Below, piece after piece: positions 1,814 through 40,691 of a stretch of DNA of 62,237 nt (positions are counted from its first letter, which is position 1; every line of letters starts with the position of its first letter). Both the position numbers and the translations under genes were made by a program. Source of the DNA: an uncultured Lachnospiraceae bacterium (GTDB taxonomy: Bacteria; Bacillota; Clostridia; Lachnospirales; Lachnospiraceae); the NCBI GenBank assembly GCA_910584115.1, contig CAJTYN010000002.1, positions 1-62,237 on the forward strand, given 5' to 3'. Under the pieces are notes generated by a model. It saw only the letters and a program-made list of their open reading frames with translations, ran no database searches and was not told the origin of the DNA.

Positions 1814-3163
1814 TTGGAAGTCCAGACAAAACGTCAAAAACGTAAGGAGAGGGAACGGAAGAGATACCATTATTATCTGAAGATGGAGATCGGTATGTTC
1901 CGGTGGACGATACTCCTGTTCTGCCTGATCGGGCTTTTGCTGCCCCTTCGCCCGGAAAAGTCTAATGTAGAGAAGCGGGATCTGGAGAAGTTCCCCAGAC
2001 CCACGGTGAGTGGGATCCTGAAGGGGGATTTTTTTGCCGATGTGAGCACCTGGTATGCAGATACGTTCCCCTTCCGGGAGAGACTGCTGACGGCGAATGC
2101 TGCGGTGGAGCGGCTCTATGGGTTGGGGAAGGAGCAGATACATGGCAGTGTAGGCACGGGAGACGAGATCCCCACGGAATTTACGGGAGCGGATGAGAGA
2201 CCGGAGGATACGCTCTCGGATGATGAGTCCGTGGCCCAGGGGGACGAGGGAGACGGTACCGTCCATGTGGTGCCGGAGAGCGCGGGGACGATCTACATAG
2301 CCCAGGATAGGGCCTTTGAACTGTATTATTTTGCGCTGGATCCGGCAAATCAATATATCAATATGATCAATGATGCGGCACAGCTGCTGAAAGGGAAAGC
2401 GACGGTCTACGATGTGCTGGTGCCCACGTCCATCGGCATCTATCTGGATCAGAAGATCCAGGACTCACTGGGCTGCAGCGACCAGTCCAAGGCTTTTGAG
2501 TATGTGCTGGGCAATCTGGATCCGAGCGTGCGGGGGGTCCGCCTGTTTGACACCCTTGTGGAGCATAACAGCGAATATCTGTATTTCCGCACGGACCATC
2601 ACTGGACCGCGGATGGGGCGTACTATGCCTATCAGCAGTTCTGCCAGGAAAAGGGGATCGATCCCATCTTGAGGGATGAGCGTCAGATCCAGGAGTTTGA
2701 CGGCTTTGTGGGCAGTTTCTATTCCTTTGGGGACCAGGCGGCCGTGCTGGCGCAGAATCCGGATCATATCACAGCGTATCTGCCGAAGAGCACGAATGAT
2801 ATGACTTACACGGGGACCGATGGTGTCACGATCGACTGGCAGGTGATCTCGGATGTCTCTCAGTATGATGCAGGGAATAAATATTCCTGTTTCATAGGCG
2901 GGGATAATCCCTATTCGGTCATCCAGAATCCCACCCTGCAGGACGGATCTTCCTGCCTGGTGATCAAAGAGTCGTATGGGAATGCGTTCGTGCCCTTCCT
3001 GGTGGACCATTACCAGACGGTCCATGTGGTGGATTACCGTTATTTTGAGGGGAATATCCCGCAGTTCGTAGGAGAAAACGGGATACAGGATGTGATCTTC
3101 ATCAACAATGCGGATGCACTGACGGAAAGCGCCGTCGGCTATATGGAAGGATTGTTCCAGTAA
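1814..3163 (+). CDS. DHHW family protein (AlgJ/PatB-like extracytoplasmic O-acetyltransferase partner)
   Basis: N-terminal TM helix, EKRDL, YFRTDHHWT, KESYGNAF and VVDYRYF motifs; directly follows the MBOAT gene; TTG start with SD GAGGAGG. Confidence 0.88.
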   Translation: MEVQTKRQKRKERERKRYHYYLKMEIGMFRWTILLFCLIGLLLPLRPEKSNVEKRDLEKFPRPTVSGILKGDFFADVSTWYADTFPFRERLLTANAAVERLYGLGKEQIHGSVGTGDEIPTEFTGADERPEDTLSDDESVAQGDEGDGTVHVVPESAGTIYIAQDRAFELYYFALDPANQYINMINDAAQLLKGKATVYDVLVPTSIGIYLDQKIQDSLGCSDQSKAFEYVLGNLDPSVRGVRLFDTLVEHNSEYLYFRTDHHWTADGAYYAYQQFCQEKGIDPILRDERQIQEFDGFVGSFYSFGDQAAVLAQNPDHITAYLPKSTNDMTYTGTDGVTIDWQVISDVSQYDAGNKYSCFIGGDNPYSVIQNPTLQDGSSCLVIKESYGNAFVPFLVDHYQTVHVVDYRYFEGNIPQFVGENGIQDVIFINNADALTESAVGYMEGLFQ

Positions 3164-31745: not shown

Positions 31746-31786
31746 CATCAAAAAAAGTCTTTGGTTCTATGAAGGAGGATCTGTTG

Positions 31787-32848
31787 ATGGAAGGTAAGAT
31801 GAAAGTCGCGGTCATGCTCGGCGTAGGTAAGATGGGCTTCGAAGAGAGGGATATCCCCATGCCTGCGGACAACGAAGTGTTGGTGAAACTGGAATATGTA
31901 GGGATCTGTGGTTCCGACCTGCATTATTACGAATCAGGTGCGATCGGTGCCAACGTGGTGGAGCCGCCCTTTGTCCTGGGCCATGAGCCGGGCGGTGTCG
32001 TAGTGGAAGTCGGAAAAGACGTAAAACATCTGAAAGTAGGCGACCGGGTGGCGCTGGAGCCTGGAAAGACCTGCGGACACTGTGAATTCTGCAGGACAGG
32101 CAGATACAATCTCTGCCCGGATGTGATCTTTTTTGCCACACCTCCGGTAGACGGGGTGTTCCAGGAATATGTTGCCCATGAAGCCGATCTGTGCTTCAAG
32201 CTCCCTGACAATGTGAGCACGCTGGAGGGCGCCCTGATCGAACCTCTGGCCGTAGGTTTCCATGCAGCCATGCAGGGCGGCGCGCAGGCAGGTCAGACGG
32301 CAGTCGTCATGGGGGCCGGGTGCATCGGGCTGGTGAGCATGATGGCGTTAAAAGCGATGGGCGTCTCAAAAGTCTATGTGGCCGACATCATGGATAAGCG
32401 TTTGGAAAAGGCCCTGGAATTGGGCGCGGACGGTGTGATCAACGGCAAAGATAAAGATACTGTGGAAGAAGTCTTGAGACTCACGGACGGAAAAGGCTGC
32501 GACCTGGCCATCGAGACAGCAGGTTCCCAGGTGACGGCAGCGCAGACCATCCACATGACTAAAAAGGGTGCGACGATCGTCCTGGTAGGCTACAGTGCCA
32601 GCGGAGAGATGACTCTGCCCATGAGTCTGGCTCTTGACAAGGAACTGACCTTCAAGACCGTATTCCGTTATCGCCATATCTATCCCATGGCCATCGAGGC
32701 AGTGGCTGCGGGCAAAGTCAACCTGAAAGGGATCGTCACAGACATCTTTGATCTGGATGATGTACAGAAAGGGATGGACCACAGTATCCATAACAAAGCG
32801 GACATCGTAAAAGGTGTGATACGGATCTCCAAAGACGCAGAGCAGTAA
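31787..32848 (+). CDS. Zn-dependent polyol (sorbitol/xylitol) dehydrogenase family
   Basis: GICGSDLHYY, LGHE, CGHCEFC..GRYNLC, FFATPPVDG, GAGCIG and FRYR motifs. Confidence 0.9.
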   Translation: MEGKMKVAVMLGVGKMGFEERDIPMPADNEVLVKLEYVGICGSDLHYYESGAIGANVVEPPFVLGHEPGGVVVEVGKDVKHLKVGDRVALEPGKTCGHCEFCRTGRYNLCPDVIFFATPPVDGVFQEYVAHEADLCFKLPDNVSTLEGALIEPLAVGFHAAMQGGAQAGQTAVVMGAGCIGLVSMMALKAMGVSKVYVADIMDKRLEKALELGADGVINGKDKDTVEEVLRLTDGKGCDLAIETAGSQVTAAQTIHMTKKGATIVLVGYSASGEMTLPMSLALDKELTFKTVFRYRHIYPMAIEAVAAGKVNLKGIVTDIFDLDDVQKGMDHSIHNKADIVKGVIRISKDAEQ

Positions 32849-32919: not shown

Positions 32920-34269
32920 TTAGGATCTATCTTTCCCAAAACCCCGCATCCGGCAGGCATAATAGATGATGAAAGCGACGCTGCTGAGCATCCAGGTGAC
33001 TGGATAGCCCACCATGATGGTCGAGAGTCCATGCCGGATCGGCAAGGCGATCACGACCCATGCGATACGCAGGAGGCACACTCCGCATATGGTGATGATG
33101 GTCGGGATCATCACATTTCCGATCCCCCGCAGGGCGCCGGAGAAGATCTCCGTCGGGGTGAAGATGACGTAAAAAGGTGCGAGGATCATGACCATCATGG
33201 ATCCGATCTTCAGCACATGCGTGTCTGTGGTGAAGATGCCCAGGAGCGGCCGGCAAAAGACGATCATGATCGCGGACACGAAGATCGCGGTGGCGGTCTG
33301 CATACCGGCGCAGACCCAGACGCTCTTTTTGACCCGCTGGTATTTCAGGGCGCCGTAGTTCTGTCCAACGAACGTGGTGATCGCGATCCCGAAGGCGCTG
33401 CTGATCATCCAGAAGATGGCGTCCAGCTTCCAGAAAGCGGCCCACGCGGCCATGGCATCCGTCCCAAACCGATTGATAGCGGCCTGGATGATGATGTTGG
33501 AGATGCTGTACATGGTACTCTGCAGCCCTGTGGGGATGCCTATGTAAAGCTGCGACTTTAAGATCCCTTTGGAAAAACCTATATTTCTAAGCTGCAGATG
33601 GAGCCCTCCGTCCGCATGCGTCAGCGCCCTCGTGACCAGGAACGCGCTGACGGCCTGCGACAGGACCGTGGCGATGGAGACTCCGGCAATGCCCAGCCCG
33701 CAGATCAATACGAAGAAGATATCCAATACGATGTTCAATACGCAGCAGACGATCAGATAATAGAGTGGTCGTCTGGGATCCCCGGCCGCGCGCAGGATGC
33801 TGGAGCCGGTATTGAAGATGAACACGAATAAGATCCCGCTGTAATATATGCGCAGGTAAACGAGAGAACCCCGCATCAACTCCCCGGGCGTATCCATCCA
33901 GCGCAAAAATACAGGGGCCAGGAGTATACCCAGTATCATGATCAAAAAGCTGGCGGCTATGGAAAAGGCATAGGCCGTATGGATGCCCGCTCTCACATTT
34001 TTCATATCCTTGGCGCCCCAGAATTGGGAGACGACCACAGCCGCGCCGGAAGTCAGCCCGGTAAAGAATCCCACCACCAGGTTCACCAGCTGTCCGGCGG
34101 ATCCGCCCACGCTCGCCAGAGCCTCTTTGCCCACAAAGCGCCCCACGATCACAGTGTCCACCGTATTATAGAGCTGCTGGAAAAAAGTCCCCAAGATGAT
34201 AGGAAAAAAGAAGATCAAAAGCTGTTTCCAGATGACACCCTCCGTGATCTGGTCCTGTCCTGGCTGCAT
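32920..34269 (-). CDS. MATE family efflux transporter
   Basis: ITEG, GTFFQQLYNTVD, RAAGDPRRP, NIVLDIFFV and GQNYGA motifs. Confidence 0.93.
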   Translation of the reverse strand: MQPGQDQITEGVIWKQLLIFFFPIILGTFFQQLYNTVDTVIVGRFVGKEALASVGGSAGQLVNLVVGFFTGLTSGAAVVVSQFWGAKDMKNVRAGIHTAYAFSIAASFLIMILGILLAPVFLRWMDTPGELMRGSLVYLRIYYSGILFVFIFNTGSSILRAAGDPRRPLYYLIVCCVLNIVLDIFFVLICGLGIAGVSIATVLSQAVSAFLVTRALTHADGGLHLQLRNIGFSKGILKSQLYIGIPTGLQSTMYSISNIIIQAAINRFGTDAMAAWAAFWKLDAIFWMISSAFGIAITTFVGQNYGALKYQRVKKSVWVCAGMQTATAIFVSAIMIVFCRPLLGIFTTDTHVLKIGSMMVMILAPFYVIFTPTEIFSGALRGIGNVMIPTIITICGVCLLRIAWVVIALPIRHGLSTIMVGYPVTWMLSSVAFIIYYACRMRGFGKDRS

Positions 34270-34433
34270 CGGCCCGCACCTCCTCTAAAGTAGTAATCCA
34301 TATATATCACAGACTCTGGAAAAAAACAAGTAAAAAGATCATCTCCATGGAACCGGGGGACTTTTCTTGCGGTGTCGGCCCGGCTATGCTATAATCTCCA
34401 GTAATGATATTTTCAGGAGAGGAGCAAAAGAGA

Positions 34434-35081
34434 ATGTACCGTGCTATTTTATTTGATCTGGATGGGACCCTGACGGCCTCGGCGGAGGGGATCACGAAAA
34501 GTGTCCGATATGCACTGCATAAACTCGGGATAGATGAACCGGATCTACATAAACTGGAGGCTTTTGTCGGCCCGCCCCTGTTGGATCAGTTTATGGAGGC
34601 ATACGGTTTGGATGAAGCGGCCGCATGGCAGGCGGTGGGGTATTACAGGGAGAGGTACGCTCAGCAGGGGATCTATGAGAACCAGCCTTACGAGGGGATA
34701 CGGGAACTCCTGCAGGGACTGAAGGCGCGGGGGTACATCCTGGGAGTGGCCTCATCCAAACCGATCGTATACGTCAGACAGATACTGGAACATTTTAAGC
34801 TCGCATCTTTTTTCACAGTGATCGAGGGCAGTCAGATGGACGGCTCCCGGACGACGAAAGGTGAGGTGATCCAGGAGGCATTGCGGGGGCTTAAGATGGA
34901 AGGGCAGCGGGAGCAGGTGGTGATGGTCGGCGACCGCAAGCACGATATCCTGGGAGCCAGGGACGCGGGGATCGACTGTGTGGCCGTGGCTTATGGATAT
35001 GGGAGCACCCAGGAACTGGAGCAGGCGGGGCCGGTCATGATCGCGCCGACGATCGAAGGACTGCAGCGTTTTTTTCTGTAA
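34434..35081 (+). CDS. HAD-superfamily hydrolase (phosphoglycolate phosphatase/5'-nucleotidase-like)
   Basis: FDLDGTL, FVGPPL, VASSKP, MVGDRKHD and YGYG motifs; SD GAGGAG upstream of ATG 34434. Confidence 0.93.
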   Translation: MYRAILFDLDGTLTASAEGITKSVRYALHKLGIDEPDLHKLEAFVGPPLLDQFMEAYGLDEAAAWQAVGYYRERYAQQGIYENQPYEGIRELLQGLKARGYILGVASSKPIVYVRQILEHFKLASFFTVIEGSQMDGSRTTKGEVIQEALRGLKMEGQREQVVMVGDRKHDILGARDAGIDCVAVAYGYGSTQELEQAGPVMIAPTIEGLQRFFL

Positions 35082-35113
35082 ACCCTCTGCCCAGACGGAA
35101 CTGGTTCCATAAA

Positions 35114-35884
35114 GTGTGGAGGGTGCTCTATCCGGCGGGGATCCATTTTGTGGTCGGATATGTGGTGGGGCAGGCGCTGATCTTATTTCTGATGCTGACA
35201 GGCCGGGGCATGGATCAGCTGAGCAGCTACAGTCTGGCGGCGACAGGCGTCACGGGTCTTTTGACCGCGCCCATAGCTGTGTGGCTGATGCGGCGGGATG
35301 AGAGGCAGGGGGGATATTATCGGCGGGGCAGGTTCAAGAGGAGGCTGCGCCCCGGGGAAGTGGTGTGGATGCTGCTCTTAGGGGTGTCCGTCTGCCATCT
35401 GGCGAATATGCTCCTGTCCATCCTGCAGATCGCCCGTCTGTTTCCCGGGTACGGGGAACTGTCCGAGCGGGTCTTTTCAGATCAGGATCTCTTGTCCATG
35501 GTCTTTTGGGTGGGGATCGTGGCGCCCATAGCGGAAGAACTGATCTTCCGAGGGCTCATCTTCCGCCGTCTCCTGGATGATATGCGTGTGGGCTGGGCCA
35601 TCGGGATCTCTGCTTTTTTCTTCGGGATCTACCATGGAAATGTGCTGCAGTTTCTGTACGCCGGGATCCTGGGGGCGTGTTTTGCCTATTGTTATTACCG
35701 GCTGGGCAGCCTGTGGGCGCCGATCCTGCTCCATATGGGGGCGAACTGCTGGTCCGTGGCCCTGACCCAGCTGGCGGCCGGGGAGGCGACGCCGGAACTG
35801 GGGTATATCCTGCTGCTGCTCATGGGCGTGGAGGTGGTGATCCTGGTGTTTTCCATCGTTGCTTTCTGCAGAAGACCCCGATGA
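35114..35884 (+). CDS. CPBP/CAAX intramembrane metalloprotease (possibly translated as a frameshifted fusion with the HAD)
   Basis: APIAEELIFRG, FGIYHGN and ILLHMGAN motifs; no SD before GTG 35114, and the frame is open back through the HAD stop region. Confidence 0.88.
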   Translation: MWRVLYPAGIHFVVGYVVGQALILFLMLTGRGMDQLSSYSLAATGVTGLLTAPIAVWLMRRDERQGGYYRRGRFKRRLRPGEVVWMLLLGVSVCHLANMLLSILQIARLFPGYGELSERVFSDQDLLSMVFWVGIVAPIAEELIFRGLIFRRLLDDMRVGWAIGISAFFFGIYHGNVLQFLYAGILGACFAYCYYRLGSLWAPILLHMGANCWSVALTQLAAGEATPELGYILLLLMGVEVVILVFSIVAFCRRPR

Positions 35885-36155: not shown

Positions 36156-39100
36156 ATGGAGAAGACATTATACGATGCCCGGTTTGAGCATGATAATTGC
36201 GGGATCGGGGCGGTAGTGAACATAAAAGGGATAAAGACCCATGAGACGGTGGCCAACGCATTGAAGATCGTTGAAAACCTGGAACATAGGGCTGGCAAAG
36301 ATGCCGAAGGAAAGACAGGGGACGGTGTTGGGATCCTACTTCAGATCTCACACAAGTTTTTTTCAAGAGCCTGTCAGTCCATCGGCATTTTTTTGGGCGA
36401 AGAAAGGGATTACGGCGTGGGGATGTTCTTCTTTCCCCAGGATGAGCTAAAGCGCAACCAGGCCAAGAAGATGTTCGAGGTGATCGTGGAGAAAGAGGGC
36501 TTAAAGTTCCTCGGATGGAGGGAAGTGCCCACGGCTCCCGGTGTGCTGGGCCACAGGGCGGTGGCTTGTATGCCTTGTATCATGCAGGGTTTCATCAAAC
36601 GGCCCAGAAGTCTTGAGAAGGGCCTGGAGTTTGACCGGAGGCTGTACATCATCCGCCGGATCTTCGAGCAGAGCAACGATGATACATATGTGTCGTCCCT
36701 GTCCAGCCGGACGATCGCCTACAAGGGGATGTTCCTGGTGGGACAGCTGCGGACATTTTATAAGGACCTGCAGAGCGCGGATTATGAGTCGGCCATCGCC
36801 ATGGTCCATTCCAGATTCAGCACCAACACGAACCCCAGCTGGGAGCGTGCCCACCCCAACCGTTTCATCGTACATAACGGGGAGATCAACACGATCCGGG
36901 GCAACGCGGACAAGATGCTGGCCCGGGAGGAGACGATGGACAACGGGGCGCTGGGAGATGAGCTGTATAAAGTGCTCCCGGTGGTGAACGCCACGGGATC
37001 GGACTCTGCCATGCTGGACAATACGCTGGAATTTCTCGTCATGAGCGGCATGCCCCTTCCCCTGGCGGTGATGATCACGATACCGGAACCCTGGGCCAAC
37101 AATAAGACCATGAGCCAGAAAAAACGGGATTTCTATCAATATCATGCCACGATGATGGAACCCTGGGACGGCCCGGCCTCCATCGTATTCAGCGACGGGG
37201 ATATCATGGGAGCCGTGCTGGACCGCAATGGGCTTCGGCCGTCCCGGTATTATGTGACGTCCGACGGCTATGTGATCCTGTCCTCGGAAGTGGGCGTCCT
37301 GGATATCGATTCGGCGAAGATCGTGGAGAAAGAACGGCTGCACCCGGGCAAGATGCTGCTGGTGGATACCGTTCAGGGCAAGATGATCTCCGATGACGAG
37401 TTGAAAGAATATTACGCGGGAAAACAGCCTTACGGGGAATGGCTGGACAGCCATCTGGTGACCTTGAAGGAATTGAAGATCCCCAATAAGCGGGTGCCCT
37501 CCTACACCCCCGAGGAGCGGGCAAAGCTGCAGAAGTCCTTTGGCTATGCCTATGAGGACTGCCGGACAACGATCCTCCATATGGCGGAGACAGGGGGCGA
37601 AGCGATCGCGGCTATGGGCGCGGATACGCCGATCCCGGTCCTGTCGGAAGGCCACGAGCCTCTGTTCCACTATTTTAAACAGCAGTTTGCCCAGGTGACG
37701 AACCCGCCGCTGGACGCGATCCGGGAGGAGATCGTCACGTCCACCACCATCTATGTGGGGGAAGATGGGAATCTCCTGGAAGAGAGGCCGGAAAACTGCA
37801 CGGTCCTGAAGGTGGAAAATCCGATCCTCACCAACACGGACCTTCTGAAGATCAAGAATATGAAGCGCAGGGAGTTCAAGATCGAGACGATCCCGATCCT
37901 CTTCTATAAGAACACCAGCCTGGAAAAAGCCATCGACCGTCTGTTCGTGGAAGTGGACCGGGCGCACAGGAATGGGGCGAAGGTACTGATCCTGTCCGAC
38001 CGGGGCGTGGACGAGAACCATGTGGCGATCCCATCCCTGCTGGCCGTATCGGCGGTGCATCAGCATCTGGTCAAGACGAAGAAGCGGACATCCCTGGCGG
38101 TCATCCTAGAATCCGGGGAGCCGCGGGAAGTCCATCATTTTGCCACGCTTTTAGGATACGGCGCCTGCGCTGTCAATCCGTATCTGGCCCAGGACACCAT
38201 CTGTGAGCTGATTGACACGGGTATCCTGGACAAAGACCCTTACGCGGCGGTGGAAGATTACAACAATGCCGTCCTCCACGGGATCGTGAAGATCGCGTCC
38301 AAGATGGGGATCTCTACGATCCAGTCCTACAGCGGATCCCAGATCTTCGAGGCGGTGGGGATCGCAAAAGACGTGGTGGACAGATATTTTACGAATACGG
38401 TCAGCCGGATCGGCGGCATCACGCTGGAGGATATCGAGCGGGAAGCGGATCAGCTCCATTCGGCGGCTTTCGACCCGCTGGGCCTGGAGACGGATCTGTC
38501 CCTGGACAGCAGGGGCCGTCATAAGATGCGCAGCGGCGGGGAAAAGCACCTGTATGACCCCCGGACCATCCATCTGCTCCAGGAGTCCACGAAGCAGGGC
38601 GATTACGCCATGTTCAAAGAGTACACGAAACTCCTGGAGGCAGAAGAAGAGCAATGCCTCCTAAGGGACCTGATGGAACTGCGATATCCCGAGAAGGGAG
38701 TCCCGCTGGAGGAAGTGGAGAGTGTGGAGTCCATCGTAAAAAGGTTCAAGACCGGAGCCATGTCCTACGGATCCATCTCCCAGGAGGCCCATGAGACGCT
38801 GGCCATCGCCATGAACCGTATCCACGGGAAATCCAACACCGGAGAGGGGGGCGAGAGTCTGGACCGGCTCACCGTCGGACCGGACGGGCAGGACCGCTGT
38901 TCGGCGATCAAACAGGTGGCTTCCGGGCGTTTCGGCGTCACCTCCAGGTATCTGACCAGCGCCAAGGAGATCCAGATCAAGATGGCCCAGGGCGCAAAAC
39001 CGGGAGAAGGCGGCCATCTGCCCGGCGGGAAAGTCTATCCATGGATCGCCACCACCCGGCACTCCACGCCGGGAGTCAGCCTGATCTCGCCGCCGCCCCA

Positions 39101-40691
39101 TCACGATATCTATTCCATCGAGGATCTGGCGCAGCTGATCTACGACTTAAAGAACGCCAACCCCGATGCCCAGATCTCGGTCAAACTGGTGGCGGAGGCC
39201 GGTGTGGGTACGGTGGCGGCCGGTGTGGCAAAAGCCGGGGCGCAGGTGATCTTGATCTCCGGATACGATGGCGGGACCGGGGCCGCGCCGGGCAGCTCGA
39301 TCTATAATGCGGGACTTCCCTGGGAACTGGGCCTCTCGGAGACGCACCAGACCCTGATCATGAACGGGCTGCGCAACAAAGTGCGCATCGAGACGGACGG
39401 AAAGCTGATGACCGGCAAGCACGTGGCCATAGCCGCCATGCTGGGCGCGGAAGAATTTGGCTTTGCCACGGCGCCATTGATCACCATGGGCTGCGTGATG
39501 ATGCGCGTCTGCAATCTGGACACCTGCCCGGTGGGTGTGGCTACCCAGAACCCGGAACTGAGGAAGCGTTTCCGCGGAAGACCGGAATATGTGGTGAATT
39601 TCATGCATTTCATCGCCCAGGAGCTGCGGGAATATATGGCGAAGCTGGGCGTGCGCACCGTAGACGAGCTGGTGGGCCGGACAGACCTCCTGTGCGCCAG
39701 GACGGATATCCGAGCGCAGAAAGCGAAGAAGGTGGATCTCTCCAATATCCTGTCCAATCCCTACGCGGCCACGGAGCAGAAAGTGGTCTTCGACCCGAAA
39801 CAAGTCTACGATTTTGAGCTGGATAAAAAAGCCGACCGGACGATCCTGCTGAAAAAATTCAAGGACGCCCTGGAAAATGGCCAGAAGCGCAGCGTGGAGC
39901 TGGATGTGGGCAACACGGATCGGACCTTTGGGACCATGTTCGGCGCGGAGATCACCAAGCGATACGGCGATGCCCTGGAAGAAGATACATTTGCCGTCAA
40001 ATGCCACGGCGCCGGGGGACAGAGCTTCGGGGCGTTCATCCCGAAGGGGCTGACCTTAGAGCTGGTGGGCGACAGCAACGATTATTTCGGAAAAGGATTA
40101 TCCGGCGGCAAGCTGGTGGTCTATCCGCCCAGGGGGAGCCGTTTCCGCCAGGACGAGAACATCATCGTGGGAAATGTGGCCCTCTACGGGGCGACCAGCG
40201 GAAAAGCCTACATCAACGGCGTGGCAGGCGAGCGGTTCTGCGTGCGCAACTCCGGCGCGATTTCTGTGGTGGAAGGCGTGGGCGACCACGGCTGCGAATA
40301 CATGACAGGCGGCCGGGTGGTGATCTTAGGCAACGTGGGCAAGAATTTTGCCGCGGGTATGAGCGGCGGGATCGCGTATGTGCTGGATGAGCGCAATGAT
40401 CTCTACACCAAGACGAATAAAGATATGGTCTCCATCGAGAAAGTGACGTCCAAATACGATGTGCAGGAATTAAAGACCATGATCCAGGACCACGTGTCCT
40501 ATACGAATTCGGTCAAAGGAAAACAGGTCCTGGACAGATTTGAGGAGTATCTGCCCAAGTTCAAGAAGATCATCCCCGACGACTACAACAGGATGCTCTC
40601 GGCCATCGTGAAGATGGAGGAAAAGGGTCTGAGCTCCCAGCAGGCACAGATCGAAGCGTTTTATGCGTACAAGCAGGATGAGGAGGGATAA
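36156..40691 (+). CDS. gltB: Glutamate synthase large subunit
   Basis: EHDNCGIG, HSRFSTNT, EPWDGPA, FAQVTNPP, QVASGRFGV, AQGAKPGEGG, CNLDTCPVG and GDHGCEYMTGG motifs. Confidence 0.97.
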   Translation: MEKTLYDARFEHDNCGIGAVVNIKGIKTHETVANALKIVENLEHRAGKDAEGKTGDGVGILLQISHKFFSRACQSIGIFLGEERDYGVGMFFFPQDELKRNQAKKMFEVIVEKEGLKFLGWREVPTAPGVLGHRAVACMPCIMQGFIKRPRSLEKGLEFDRRLYIIRRIFEQSNDDTYVSSLSSRTIAYKGMFLVGQLRTFYKDLQSADYESAIAMVHSRFSTNTNPSWERAHPNRFIVHNGEINTIRGNADKMLAREETMDNGALGDELYKVLPVVNATGSDSAMLDNTLEFLVMSGMPLPLAVMITIPEPWANNKTMSQKKRDFYQYHATMMEPWDGPASIVFSDGDIMGAVLDRNGLRPSRYYVTSDGYVILSSEVGVLDIDSAKIVEKERLHPGKMLLVDTVQGKMISDDELKEYYAGKQPYGEWLDSHLVTLKELKIPNKRVPSYTPEERAKLQKSFGYAYEDCRTTILHMAETGGEAIAAMGADTPIPVLSEGHEPLFHYFKQQFAQVTNPPLDAIREEIVTSTTIYVGEDGNLLEERPENCTVLKVENPILTNTDLLKIKNMKRREFKIETIPILFYKNTSLEKAIDRLFVEVDRAHRNGAKVLILSDRGVDENHVAIPSLLAVSAVHQHLVKTKKRTSLAVILESGEPREVHHFATLLGYGACAVNPYLAQDTICELIDTGILDKDPYAAVEDYNNAVLHGIVKIASKMGISTIQSYSGSQIFEAVGIAKDVVDRYFTNTVSRIGGITLEDIEREADQLHSAAFDPLGLETDLSLDSRGRHKMRSGGEKHLYDPRTIHLLQESTKQGDYAMFKEYTKLLEAEEEQCLLRDLMELRYPEKGVPLEEVESVESIVKRFKTGAMSYGSISQEAHETLAIAMNRIHGKSNTGEGGESLDRLTVGPDGQDRCSAIKQVASGRFGVTSRYLTSAKEIQIKMAQGAKPGEGGHLPGGKVYPWIATTRHSTPGVSLISPPPHHDIYSIEDLAQLIYDLKNANPDAQISVKLVAEAGVGTVAAGVAKAGAQVILISGYDGGTGAAPGSSIYNAGLPWELGLSETHQTLIMNGLRNKVRIETDGKLMTGKHVAIAAMLGAEEFGFATAPLITMGCVMMRVCNLDTCPVGVATQNPELRKRFRGRPEYVVNFMHFIAQELREYMAKLGVRTVDELVGRTDLLCARTDIRAQKAKKVDLSNILSNPYAATEQKVVFDPKQVYDFELDKKADRTILLKKFKDALENGQKRSVELDVGNTDRTFGTMFGAEITKRYGDALEEDTFAVKCHGAGGQSFGAFIPKGLTLELVGDSNDYFGKGLSGGKLVVYPPRGSRFRQDENIIVGNVALYGATSGKAYINGVAGERFCVRNSGAISVVEGVGDHGCEYMTGGRVVILGNVGKNFAAGMSGGIAYVLDERNDLYTKTNKDMVSIEKVTSKYDVQELKTMIQDHVSYTNSVKGKQVLDRFEEYLPKFKKIIPDDYNRMLSAIVKMEEKGLSSQQAQIEAFYAYKQDEEG

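Follow-up and report, generated by a model that had tools for sequence, protein, structure and literature searches.

The locus considered here raises a simple question: does a stop codon that lies just past a run of seven thymines separate two independent genes, or do some ribosomes bypass it and join two proteins into one? The run was found in a 62,237-nt stretch of contig CAJTYN010000002.1 from an uncultured Lachnospiraceae bacterium (assembly GCA_910584115.1), hereafter the window, to whose positions all coordinates refer. It closes a gene for a HAD hydrolase and is overlapped, in the -1 frame, by an open reading frame (ORF) for a CPBP (Rce1-like) intramembrane protease. From comparison with related genomes, our answer is that programmed -1 ribosomal frameshifting probably operates here, yielding a soluble HAD protein of 215 amino acids and a HAD–CPBP fusion of 483.

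The HAD frame ends with CAG CGT TTT TTT CTG TAA, the stop occupying 35079–35081. As the first T of the run (T7) is the third base of CGT, the heptamer U UUU UUU lies in phase with the HAD codons. The -1 frame, open back to at least 34901, reads FFSVNPLPRRNWFHKVWRVLYPAGIHF across the junction and runs on without a stop into the CPBP ORF; HAD residues 1–214 together with the 269 residues of the -1 frame make up the 483-residue fusion. The heptamer alone is unremarkable, because TTTTTTY is so common in this DNA – it occurs 85 times in the window against 9.1 times in dinucleotide shuffles, and is thus about nine times more frequent – and its significance therefore rests solely on comparison across genomes.

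That comparison was based on a scan with an alignment of CPBP homologues, one genome being taken per species; the best 80 of 473 relatives gave 79 distinct loci, which were sorted by tblastn with both window proteins. HAD lies directly upstream of CPBP in 75 of the 79. Two arrangements account for these: CPBP follows HAD in the -1 frame in 47 loci (48 with the window, collectively the -1 class), and the two are joined in a single in-frame ORF of 485–677 amino acids in 28. The other four loci (L064, L070, L073 and L075), without HAD upstream, carry a standalone CPBP gene with its own ATG. The -1 class consists of the window's own clade of uncultured Lachnospiraceae (L001–L005) and many Blautia species, and 13 of its 47 loci beyond the window come from cultured isolates, to judge by their record titles. 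The in-frame ORFs checked with Pfam (4/4) carry both HAD_2 and Rce1-like domains, and all 13 longer homologues in a large protein collection are HAD–CPBP fusions of 498–550 amino acids, called 'HAD hydrolase-like protein' where the source names them at all.

Within the -1 class, a run of at least six thymines begins at the third base of a codon in every sequence (NNT TTT TTY; 48/48). TTTTTTC accounts for 36 of the heptamers and TTTTTTT for 12; by length, 36 runs are T6, nine are T7 and three are T8. The HAD stop lies one codon past the heptamer in 47 of the 48. In 12 sequences, a -1-frame stop stands directly against the 5' end of the run, with the 0-frame stop 2–4 nt past the run, so that there the frame can change only on the run itself.

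Judged against codon choice elsewhere in the same two genes, the shift site is conserved beyond what the encoded protein requires. The controls were single conserved Phe columns and Asp, Asn or His (D/N/H) columns; other conserved FF dipeptides were also sought as a control in these genes, and none was found. The base preceding the two Phe codons is T in 48/48, over GAT, AAT, CGT, CAT and ACT codons, compared with 38–88% T at the third position of 16 conserved D/N/H columns. The first Phe codon is TTT in 48/48, versus 50–91% TTT in nine other conserved Phe columns, and the second is TTC in 36 (75%), versus a background of 22% TTC – a bias that holds the run at the shortest length compatible with a heptamer. 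The 0-frame HAD stop looks to be under selection too, to judge by the Ser codon that overlaps it in the -1 frame, which is AGC in 27/27 cases against an AGY background of 33%. In Escherichia coli, according to PMC4066793, H_HH.U_UU.Y heptamers rank with the most efficient -1 motifs, and the tetramer U_UU.C outdoes U_UU.U.

At the heptamer, codon periodicity in the alignment passes from HAD to -1 phasing: in the 90 nt before it, third positions of the 0 frame have the highest column entropy (1.48 versus 0.75 and 0.55), and past it third positions of the -1 frame do (1.36 versus 0.78 and 0.59). Read in the -1 frame, the first codon past the heptamer is CGN (Arg), but the residue that the 0 frame encodes there varies (A, D, G, V and others), and the -1 peptide is conserved as FF(R/S/L)(L/V/I)(S/T/N)PL(R/H)(R/K)Q...(V/I)WR..YP.GIHF. 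The ratio of nonsynonymous to synonymous substitution rates (dN/dS) is 0.00–0.38 over the first 33 codons past FF (33 pairs with estimable dS, from two subclades), and 0.09–0.26 for whole CPBP-frame ORFs in a subclade that has neither a start codon ahead of the conserved motif nor a downstream stem. Purifying selection acts on both ORFs.

No ATG, GTG or TTG occurs in the open -1 frame ahead of the conserved W codon in 17 of the 48, and in two of the class, L026 (a Blautia intestinalis isolate) and L045, the first canonical start appears only at codon 67–68, beyond the first membrane helix. The -1-frame codon overlapping the HAD stop is CTG in 33, GTA in seven, ATA in five and TTA in three sequences, a set that points to a hydrophobic residue rather than a start. 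The first GTG of the window's CPBP frame has GTG, TTG, ATC, ATA, ATT, CTG, TGG or GCN as its counterpart elsewhere and, given this variation, is not a conserved start. Public gene calls for CPBP, by comparison, mostly begin internally: of the 18 closest, 12 begin past the conserved GIHF motif and two inside it (MGIH), two begin at MWRV and two at MNPLP, whose first codon overlaps the HAD stop. In most relatives, annotation thus truncates the protein.

The preliminary description of this locus had been made from the window's letters alone, and much of it stands. Its positions for the heptamer, the GTG, the AAGGA and the stem, and its reading of the stop and the -1 frame, all proved correct on re-reading of the sequence, and the product sizes it proposed, about 215 and 480 residues, agree with the 215 and 214 + 269 = 483 counted here. 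It had proposed checking orthologues for a constant -1 offset with an in-phase heptamer, for protein-level conservation of the window's NWFHKVWR segment and for in-frame fused homologues, and all three comparisons favour its core claim: the offset and T TTT TTY recur in 48/48, NWFHKVWR-type segments are kept at the protein level in the -1 frame and are under purifying selection, and fusions make up 28 of the 79 loci as well as the 13/13 longer database matches. Its impression that the HAD C-terminus is complete was likewise borne out by the profile comparisons described below.

Downstream of the heptamer, the window can form a stem in which ACCCTCTGC (35082–35090) pairs with GTGGAGGGT (35116–35124) over 9 bp, two of them G-U, beginning 6 nt past the heptamer. 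In a 50-nt context, this stem is the minimum free energy (MFE) structure (-16.4 kcal/mol, pair probabilities 0.94–1.00), and it is again the MFE structure in an 85-nt context, pair probabilities over the two contexts ranging from 0.89 to 1.00; in a 65-nt context, an alternative fold is better by 0.7 kcal/mol and the probability of the stem falls to about 0.3. Across the class, all pairs of a 7-bp core are possible in 34 of 48 sequences and at least six pairs in 36, at a spacing of 6–7 nt. An all-against-all helix scan of the 48-sequence junction alignment returned this stem (columns 35–41 with 72–78) as the sole conserved helix, the other hits being trivial pairings of the U run with purine stretches, and it returned no pseudoknot partner. 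Single-sequence MFE folds mostly contain the stem, with a mean z-score of -1.8 against mononucleotide shuffles. The arms are the most conserved nucleotide blocks, the Arg of the WR motif, for example, being AGG in 36/48 compared with a background of 13%. The short-linker in-frame relatives (L023, L025, L077 and L078) use other synonymous codons there, with which the CCCUC/GAGGG stem is impossible (0/4). We regard the stem as a probable stimulator that would raise slippage, but as a dispensable one, since a subclade does without it.

That stem-less subclade comprises nine Blautia species (L015, L018, L026, L030, L033, L034, L036, L042 and L043), with fold z-scores from near 0 to -1. Its members retain the heptamer and the -1 offset (CCCCCGAC ... 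TGGCGTA and similar, the junction lying near 2990–3080 in most), and all nine lack a canonical start from the heptamer to the W codon; a GTG does occur in L018, and in no other member, but 93 nt upstream and within HAD. The MFE folds of L033, L034 and L036 contain a different long-range stem (CCC..GCAGG with CCUGC..GGG), and those of L042 and L043 something similar. Individual variants also occur elsewhere in the class: L048, which has a T8 run, shows at 690–720 a perfect hairpin, GCUCCC-UGA-GGGAGC, with the HAD stop in its loop and the same spacing from the heptamer, and L050 has its usual 3' arm mutated (GGAAAA) but a complementary UGAGGGU just upstream, in other words a shifted 3' arm.

At the protein level, the two halves of the locus are recognisable as intact domains. 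The window's HAD scores above the cut-off of the NCBIfam model HAD-SF-IA-v1 and below those of the PGP and PpaX equivalogs, and it covers the PGP and PpaX profiles to within a few residues of both ends; on this evidence, HAD is complete at its stop. FDLDGT, SSKP and GDxxxD are invariant in the alignment examined and correspond to what we take to be the subfamily IA motifs DxDxT, S/T, K and GDxxxD. The CPBP frame matches Pfam PF02517 (Rce1-like/CPBP) with E = 3.5e-24, and its invariant residues – E154, E155 and R159; F183 and H187; H220 and N224 – fall into EExxxR, FxxxH and HxxxN, presumably the defining motifs of CPBP/Rce1-like proteins. L078, an in-frame fusion that occurs in nature, was modelled with AlphaFold2 from 30 naturally fused sequences (mean predicted local distance difference test, pLDDT, 86.5; predicted template-modelling score, pTM, 0.61). 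The model places the last HAD helix at 207–215, a linker at 216–223 and the first membrane helix from 224 onwards, and from this order the shift site would coincide with the domain boundary.

The relationship between the two arrangements was examined in a tree of 74 rows, from which L004 and L033 were omitted (HAD cut by the contig end), with the junction excluded from the -1 rows. The 25 long-linker in-frame fusions fall on one side, marked with a star in the tree (support 98), and 46 frameshifted and three in-frame rows on the opposite side. Of these three, L023 is sister to the frameshifted L048 (support 100), and L077 and L078 are nested among Blautia, although they are two long branches that join each other and their placement is less sure. 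At least three state changes are needed on this tree. Placing all in-frame rows in one clade is rejected by an approximately unbiased (AU) test (p about 1e-67), for a group that was defined once the tree had been seen. In-frame L078 has T7 where the -1 class has T6. The frameshifted arrangement likely arose when a T7 run in an in-frame, fused ancestor lost one T, and the simplest history would be a single such event followed by two reversions to an in-frame fusion. One further sequence, L008, comes from a contig labelled as an Eggerthellaceae bacterium and falls in a tight clade of Blautia and 'Ruminococcus sp.' beside L020 and L027; this position suggests that the contig was mis-binned or mislabelled and that the copy is not actinobacterial.

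In the mechanism that we propose, the locus would be a single transcription unit decoded into two proteins. Most ribosomes would read ...CGU UUU UUU CUG and terminate at UAA, releasing a complete, soluble, phosphatase-like HAD-IA protein of 215 residues. Some would slip back by one base with two tRNA-Phe on UUU UUU (35070–35075), re-pair on 35069–35074 and continue with UCU GUA AAC... in the -1 frame as far as 35884; in the resulting fusion, a short basic linker would tie HAD to the first membrane helix of the CPBP (Rce1-like) intramembrane protease. That it is the ribosome that slips, rather than RNA polymerase, we infer, as we do the efficiency of slippage and the function of both products.

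Several observations weigh against this account. The 48 sequences are mutually related, so that counts of the 48/48 type are not independent and are to be read as descriptive. T runs abound in the genome, and two further in-phase T_TTT_TTC sites occur within the same two genes. The stem shows almost no covariation: only three cells are changed on both sides, and 83.5% of cells pair compared with 80.2% after shuffling, and RNAalifold, applied to the 48-sequence junction alignment, yielded no consensus structure. It is degenerate in 12 of the 48, including the whole nine-species subclade described above. The stem of the preliminary description is thus correct as a pairing, and its sequence is kept in 34/48, but covariation lends it next to nothing; the smaller hairpin that it was said to enclose exists too, as CCAG/CUGG (35091–35094 with 35101–35104) and not in the form implied. 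The upstream Shine–Dalgarno (SD) element, which had been counted as part of the signal, is not supported: the window's AAGGA is not conserved, GGAGG is found within 22 nt of the heptamer in 1/48 and the nearest relative, L001, has GAAGGG, so that the three-part layout familiar from dnaX fails here. The codon directly ahead of W is GTG or TTG in the window as in 28/48, and could give an independent CPBP protein. Finally, the identical fusion protein would result if RNA polymerase added one extra U.

This last point leads to the main rival, transcriptional slippage, in which RNA polymerase adds one U on the T run and a fraction of the mRNAs encodes the fusion in one frame. We consider it unlikely, even though a homopolymer lies at the shift site in 48/48, the stem-less subclade keeps its T run and the T7 of L078, as against T6, identifies the run as a place of single-base length changes. 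The runs are short (T6 to T8, as counted above), and the preference for TTC (75% versus 22%) shortens them further; the bacterial cases described in PMC5009743 involve runs of about nine A or T, longer than any in the class. Nor was a conserved hairpin, of the kind that in nascent RNA could let a shorter run suffice, found in the 60 nt upstream of the run in a scan of the -1 class, whereas the conserved element sits downstream, at the 6–7 nt spacing typical of ribosomal stimulators.

The remaining explanations need no slippage. If an ancestral fusion had undergone fission into two separate genes, CPBP would start at the GTG at 35114 or, by coupling to the termination of HAD, at a near-cognate codon; the fusion protein would not arise. 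The public gene calls, which give CPBP as a separate protein of 237–268 amino acids, the four standalone CPBP loci with their own ATG, the GTG or TTG before W and the CTG – a near-cognate start – that overlaps the HAD stop in 33/48 can all be read in this way. The window's GTG, however, lacks an SD and lies inside the stem; 17/48 have no canonical start ahead of the motif, and in two the earliest such codon comes only past the first membrane helix; GTA, ATA or TTA overlaps the HAD stop in 15/48 and encodes a hydrophobic residue, not a start; the segment between heptamer and GTG is conserved as protein (dN/dS 0–0.38); and the synonymous sites of the heptamer are conserved beyond the control columns. 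Taken together, these make fission quite improbable. Homopolymers are error-prone and mutable, and T8 would be enough to put the window ORFs in one frame; the T run could accordingly reflect faulty sequencing or assembly, a gene that recently became a pseudogene, or ON/OFF switching by phase variation. Sequencing error is excluded because 47 other independent assemblies of different species, 13 of them from cultured isolates, share the same -1 state, and these assemblies together with purifying selection on both ORFs exclude a recent pseudogene as well. Runs of 6–8 are short for phase variation; moreover, the window's clade has T7 throughout (6/6), 48 species-level genomes share a fixed -1 state, and the three in-frame members of the larger clade carry other fixed changes besides run length. 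As a group, these possibilities strike us as very remote, and programmed -1 ribosomal frameshifting remains the reading that we favour.

Among known recoding systems, the HAD–CPBP locus recalls the orfA–orfB pairs of IS3/IS911 insertion sequences (IS), in which an in-phase heptamer likewise lies near the end of the upstream ORF, the 0-frame stop follows soon after and a 3' structure begins a few nucleotides on; there too, slippage gives a two-domain fusion and normal decoding a short upstream product. PMC4066793 lists U_UU.U_UU.C among the heptamers of IS elements. Unlike these elements, HAD–CPBP is a chromosomal enzyme/protease pair without a transposase, Pfam finding only HAD and CPBP domains, and its structure is a simple large-loop stem that has no covariation support and for which no pseudoknot was found. 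The other obvious point of reference is Escherichia coli dnaX (tau/gamma), a cellular, non-mobile gene in which a heptamer and a stem-loop about 6 nt downstream give two products in a set ratio. HAD–CPBP resembles it as a cellular gene with a heptamer and a candidate stem-loop at that distance. However, the dnaX signal combines A AAA AAG with an internal SD roughly 10 nt upstream, as opposed to U UUU UUY and no conserved SD, and its shifted product is shorter, whereas that of HAD–CPBP would be longer by a whole domain. A further parallel lies in cases from GeneTack-type surveys (e.g. Mg-chelatase chlD; Antonov et al. 2013), also found by comparative genomics as conserved frame disruptions between domains that are fused elsewhere; the main text of the GeneTack survey (PMC3711429) has no match for CAAX or Abi, its full cluster list being only partly covered here. 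A last comparison is with the in-frame HAD–CPBP fusions of Lachnospiraceae themselves, whose homology spans the two domains and extends, in L023, L077 and L078, to the linker (FFLSGPLREQ or FFRRTPLRKQ in frame, versus FFRLSPLRRQ in the -1 product). They differ in having one frame and no stop, and the short-linker ones have synonymous alternatives in place of the CCCUC/GAGGG stem.

Features of the HAD–CPBP locus, with positions in the 62,237-nt window
Feature	Positions	Strand	Remarks
HAD-IA type hydrolase ORF (0 frame)	34434..35081	+	215 aa, span includes the stop codon; Pfam HAD_2 7e-34; homologues begin at the equivalent M
SD-like AAGGA, probably not part of the signal	35056..35060	+	8 nt before the heptamer; unconserved
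Slippery heptamer T TTT TTT (U UUU UUU), X XXY YYZ phase	35069..35075	+	Proposed tandem -1 slippage of two tRNA-Phe
-1 frame, from first new codon TCT (Ser) to stop TGA (35882–35884)	35075..35884	+	269 aa: linker, WR..YP.GIHF motif, CPBP (Rce1-like) domain
Last 0-frame sense codon CTG and HAD stop TAA	35076..35081	+	Doubles as the 6-nt spacer between heptamer and stem
Candidate 3' stimulatory stem-loop	35082..35124	+	Arms 35082–35090 / 35116–35124; 9 bp, two G-U pairs
First GTG in the CPBP frame; start possible but unsupported	35114..35116	+	No SD; inside or beside the stem's 3' arm

The beginning of the transcription unit and its surroundings can be described more briefly. HAD likely starts at the ATG at 34434 (MYRAILFDLDG...), 9 nt downstream of the SD-like GGAGAGGAG at 34416–34424; the strength of this SD and the placement of an extended -10 element favour 34434 over 34404. 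The extended -10 element, TGCTATAAT (34387–34395), 17 nt past TTGCGG, was spotted by eye and is unlisted by a consensus promoter scan. A promoter and terminator scan found no promoter-like site between the HAD and CPBP ORFs, and Rfam gave no match for 34900–35300 at E up to 10. The two additional T_TTT_TTC heptamers lie at 34808–34814 in HAD (SFF) and at 35614–35620 in CPBP (AFFFG); by reading of the sequence, a -1 slip at 34808 would meet a stop after about 17 codons. The neighbouring genes, as assigned by Pfam, encode a zinc-type alcohol/polyol dehydrogenase (31769–32848, + strand), a MatE-family efflux protein (32920–34269, - strand) and the glutamate synthase large subunit (36156–40691, + strand), and no functional link between these three and the HAD–CPBP pair is obvious.

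Literature searches for ribosomal frameshifting together with CPBP, CAAX protease, Blautia or Lachnospiraceae found no published report of a HAD–CPBP frameshift among the titles and abstracts listed, and term searches found the family unmentioned in PMC4066793, in bioRxiv 10.1101/2025.10.02.679949 and in the portion of PMC5009743 covered. We are inclined to see the locus as a so far unreported, anciently conserved programmed -1 shift in a gene that is not mobile, present in Blautia and in allied Lachnospiraceae abundant in the human gut, which would set the ratio of free, cytoplasmic HAD phosphatase to its CPBP-tethered form; it may have been born of a one-T deletion, the rescuing slip becoming fixed, and may later have acquired the 3' stem, with at least two lineages reverting to an in-frame fusion.

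Once IS elements and phages are set aside, few -1 frameshifts in the chromosomal genes of bacteria are well supported, and the HAD–CPBP shift would be one conserved over dozens of species of a dominant gut genus, appending a whole membrane domain rather than a short tail. It would also link a HAD phosphatase functionally to a CPBP protease, a member of a family whose bacterial substrates are mostly unknown. For genome annotation, it exposes a systematic error, in that CPBP calls mostly begin internally and omit the N-terminal motif, and the fusion goes unannotated in the -1 class. With natural controls built in – in-frame sister lineages and one stem-less subclade – the HAD–CPBP family would, if this interpretation is true, offer a natural series for studying the birth and loss of recoding signals.

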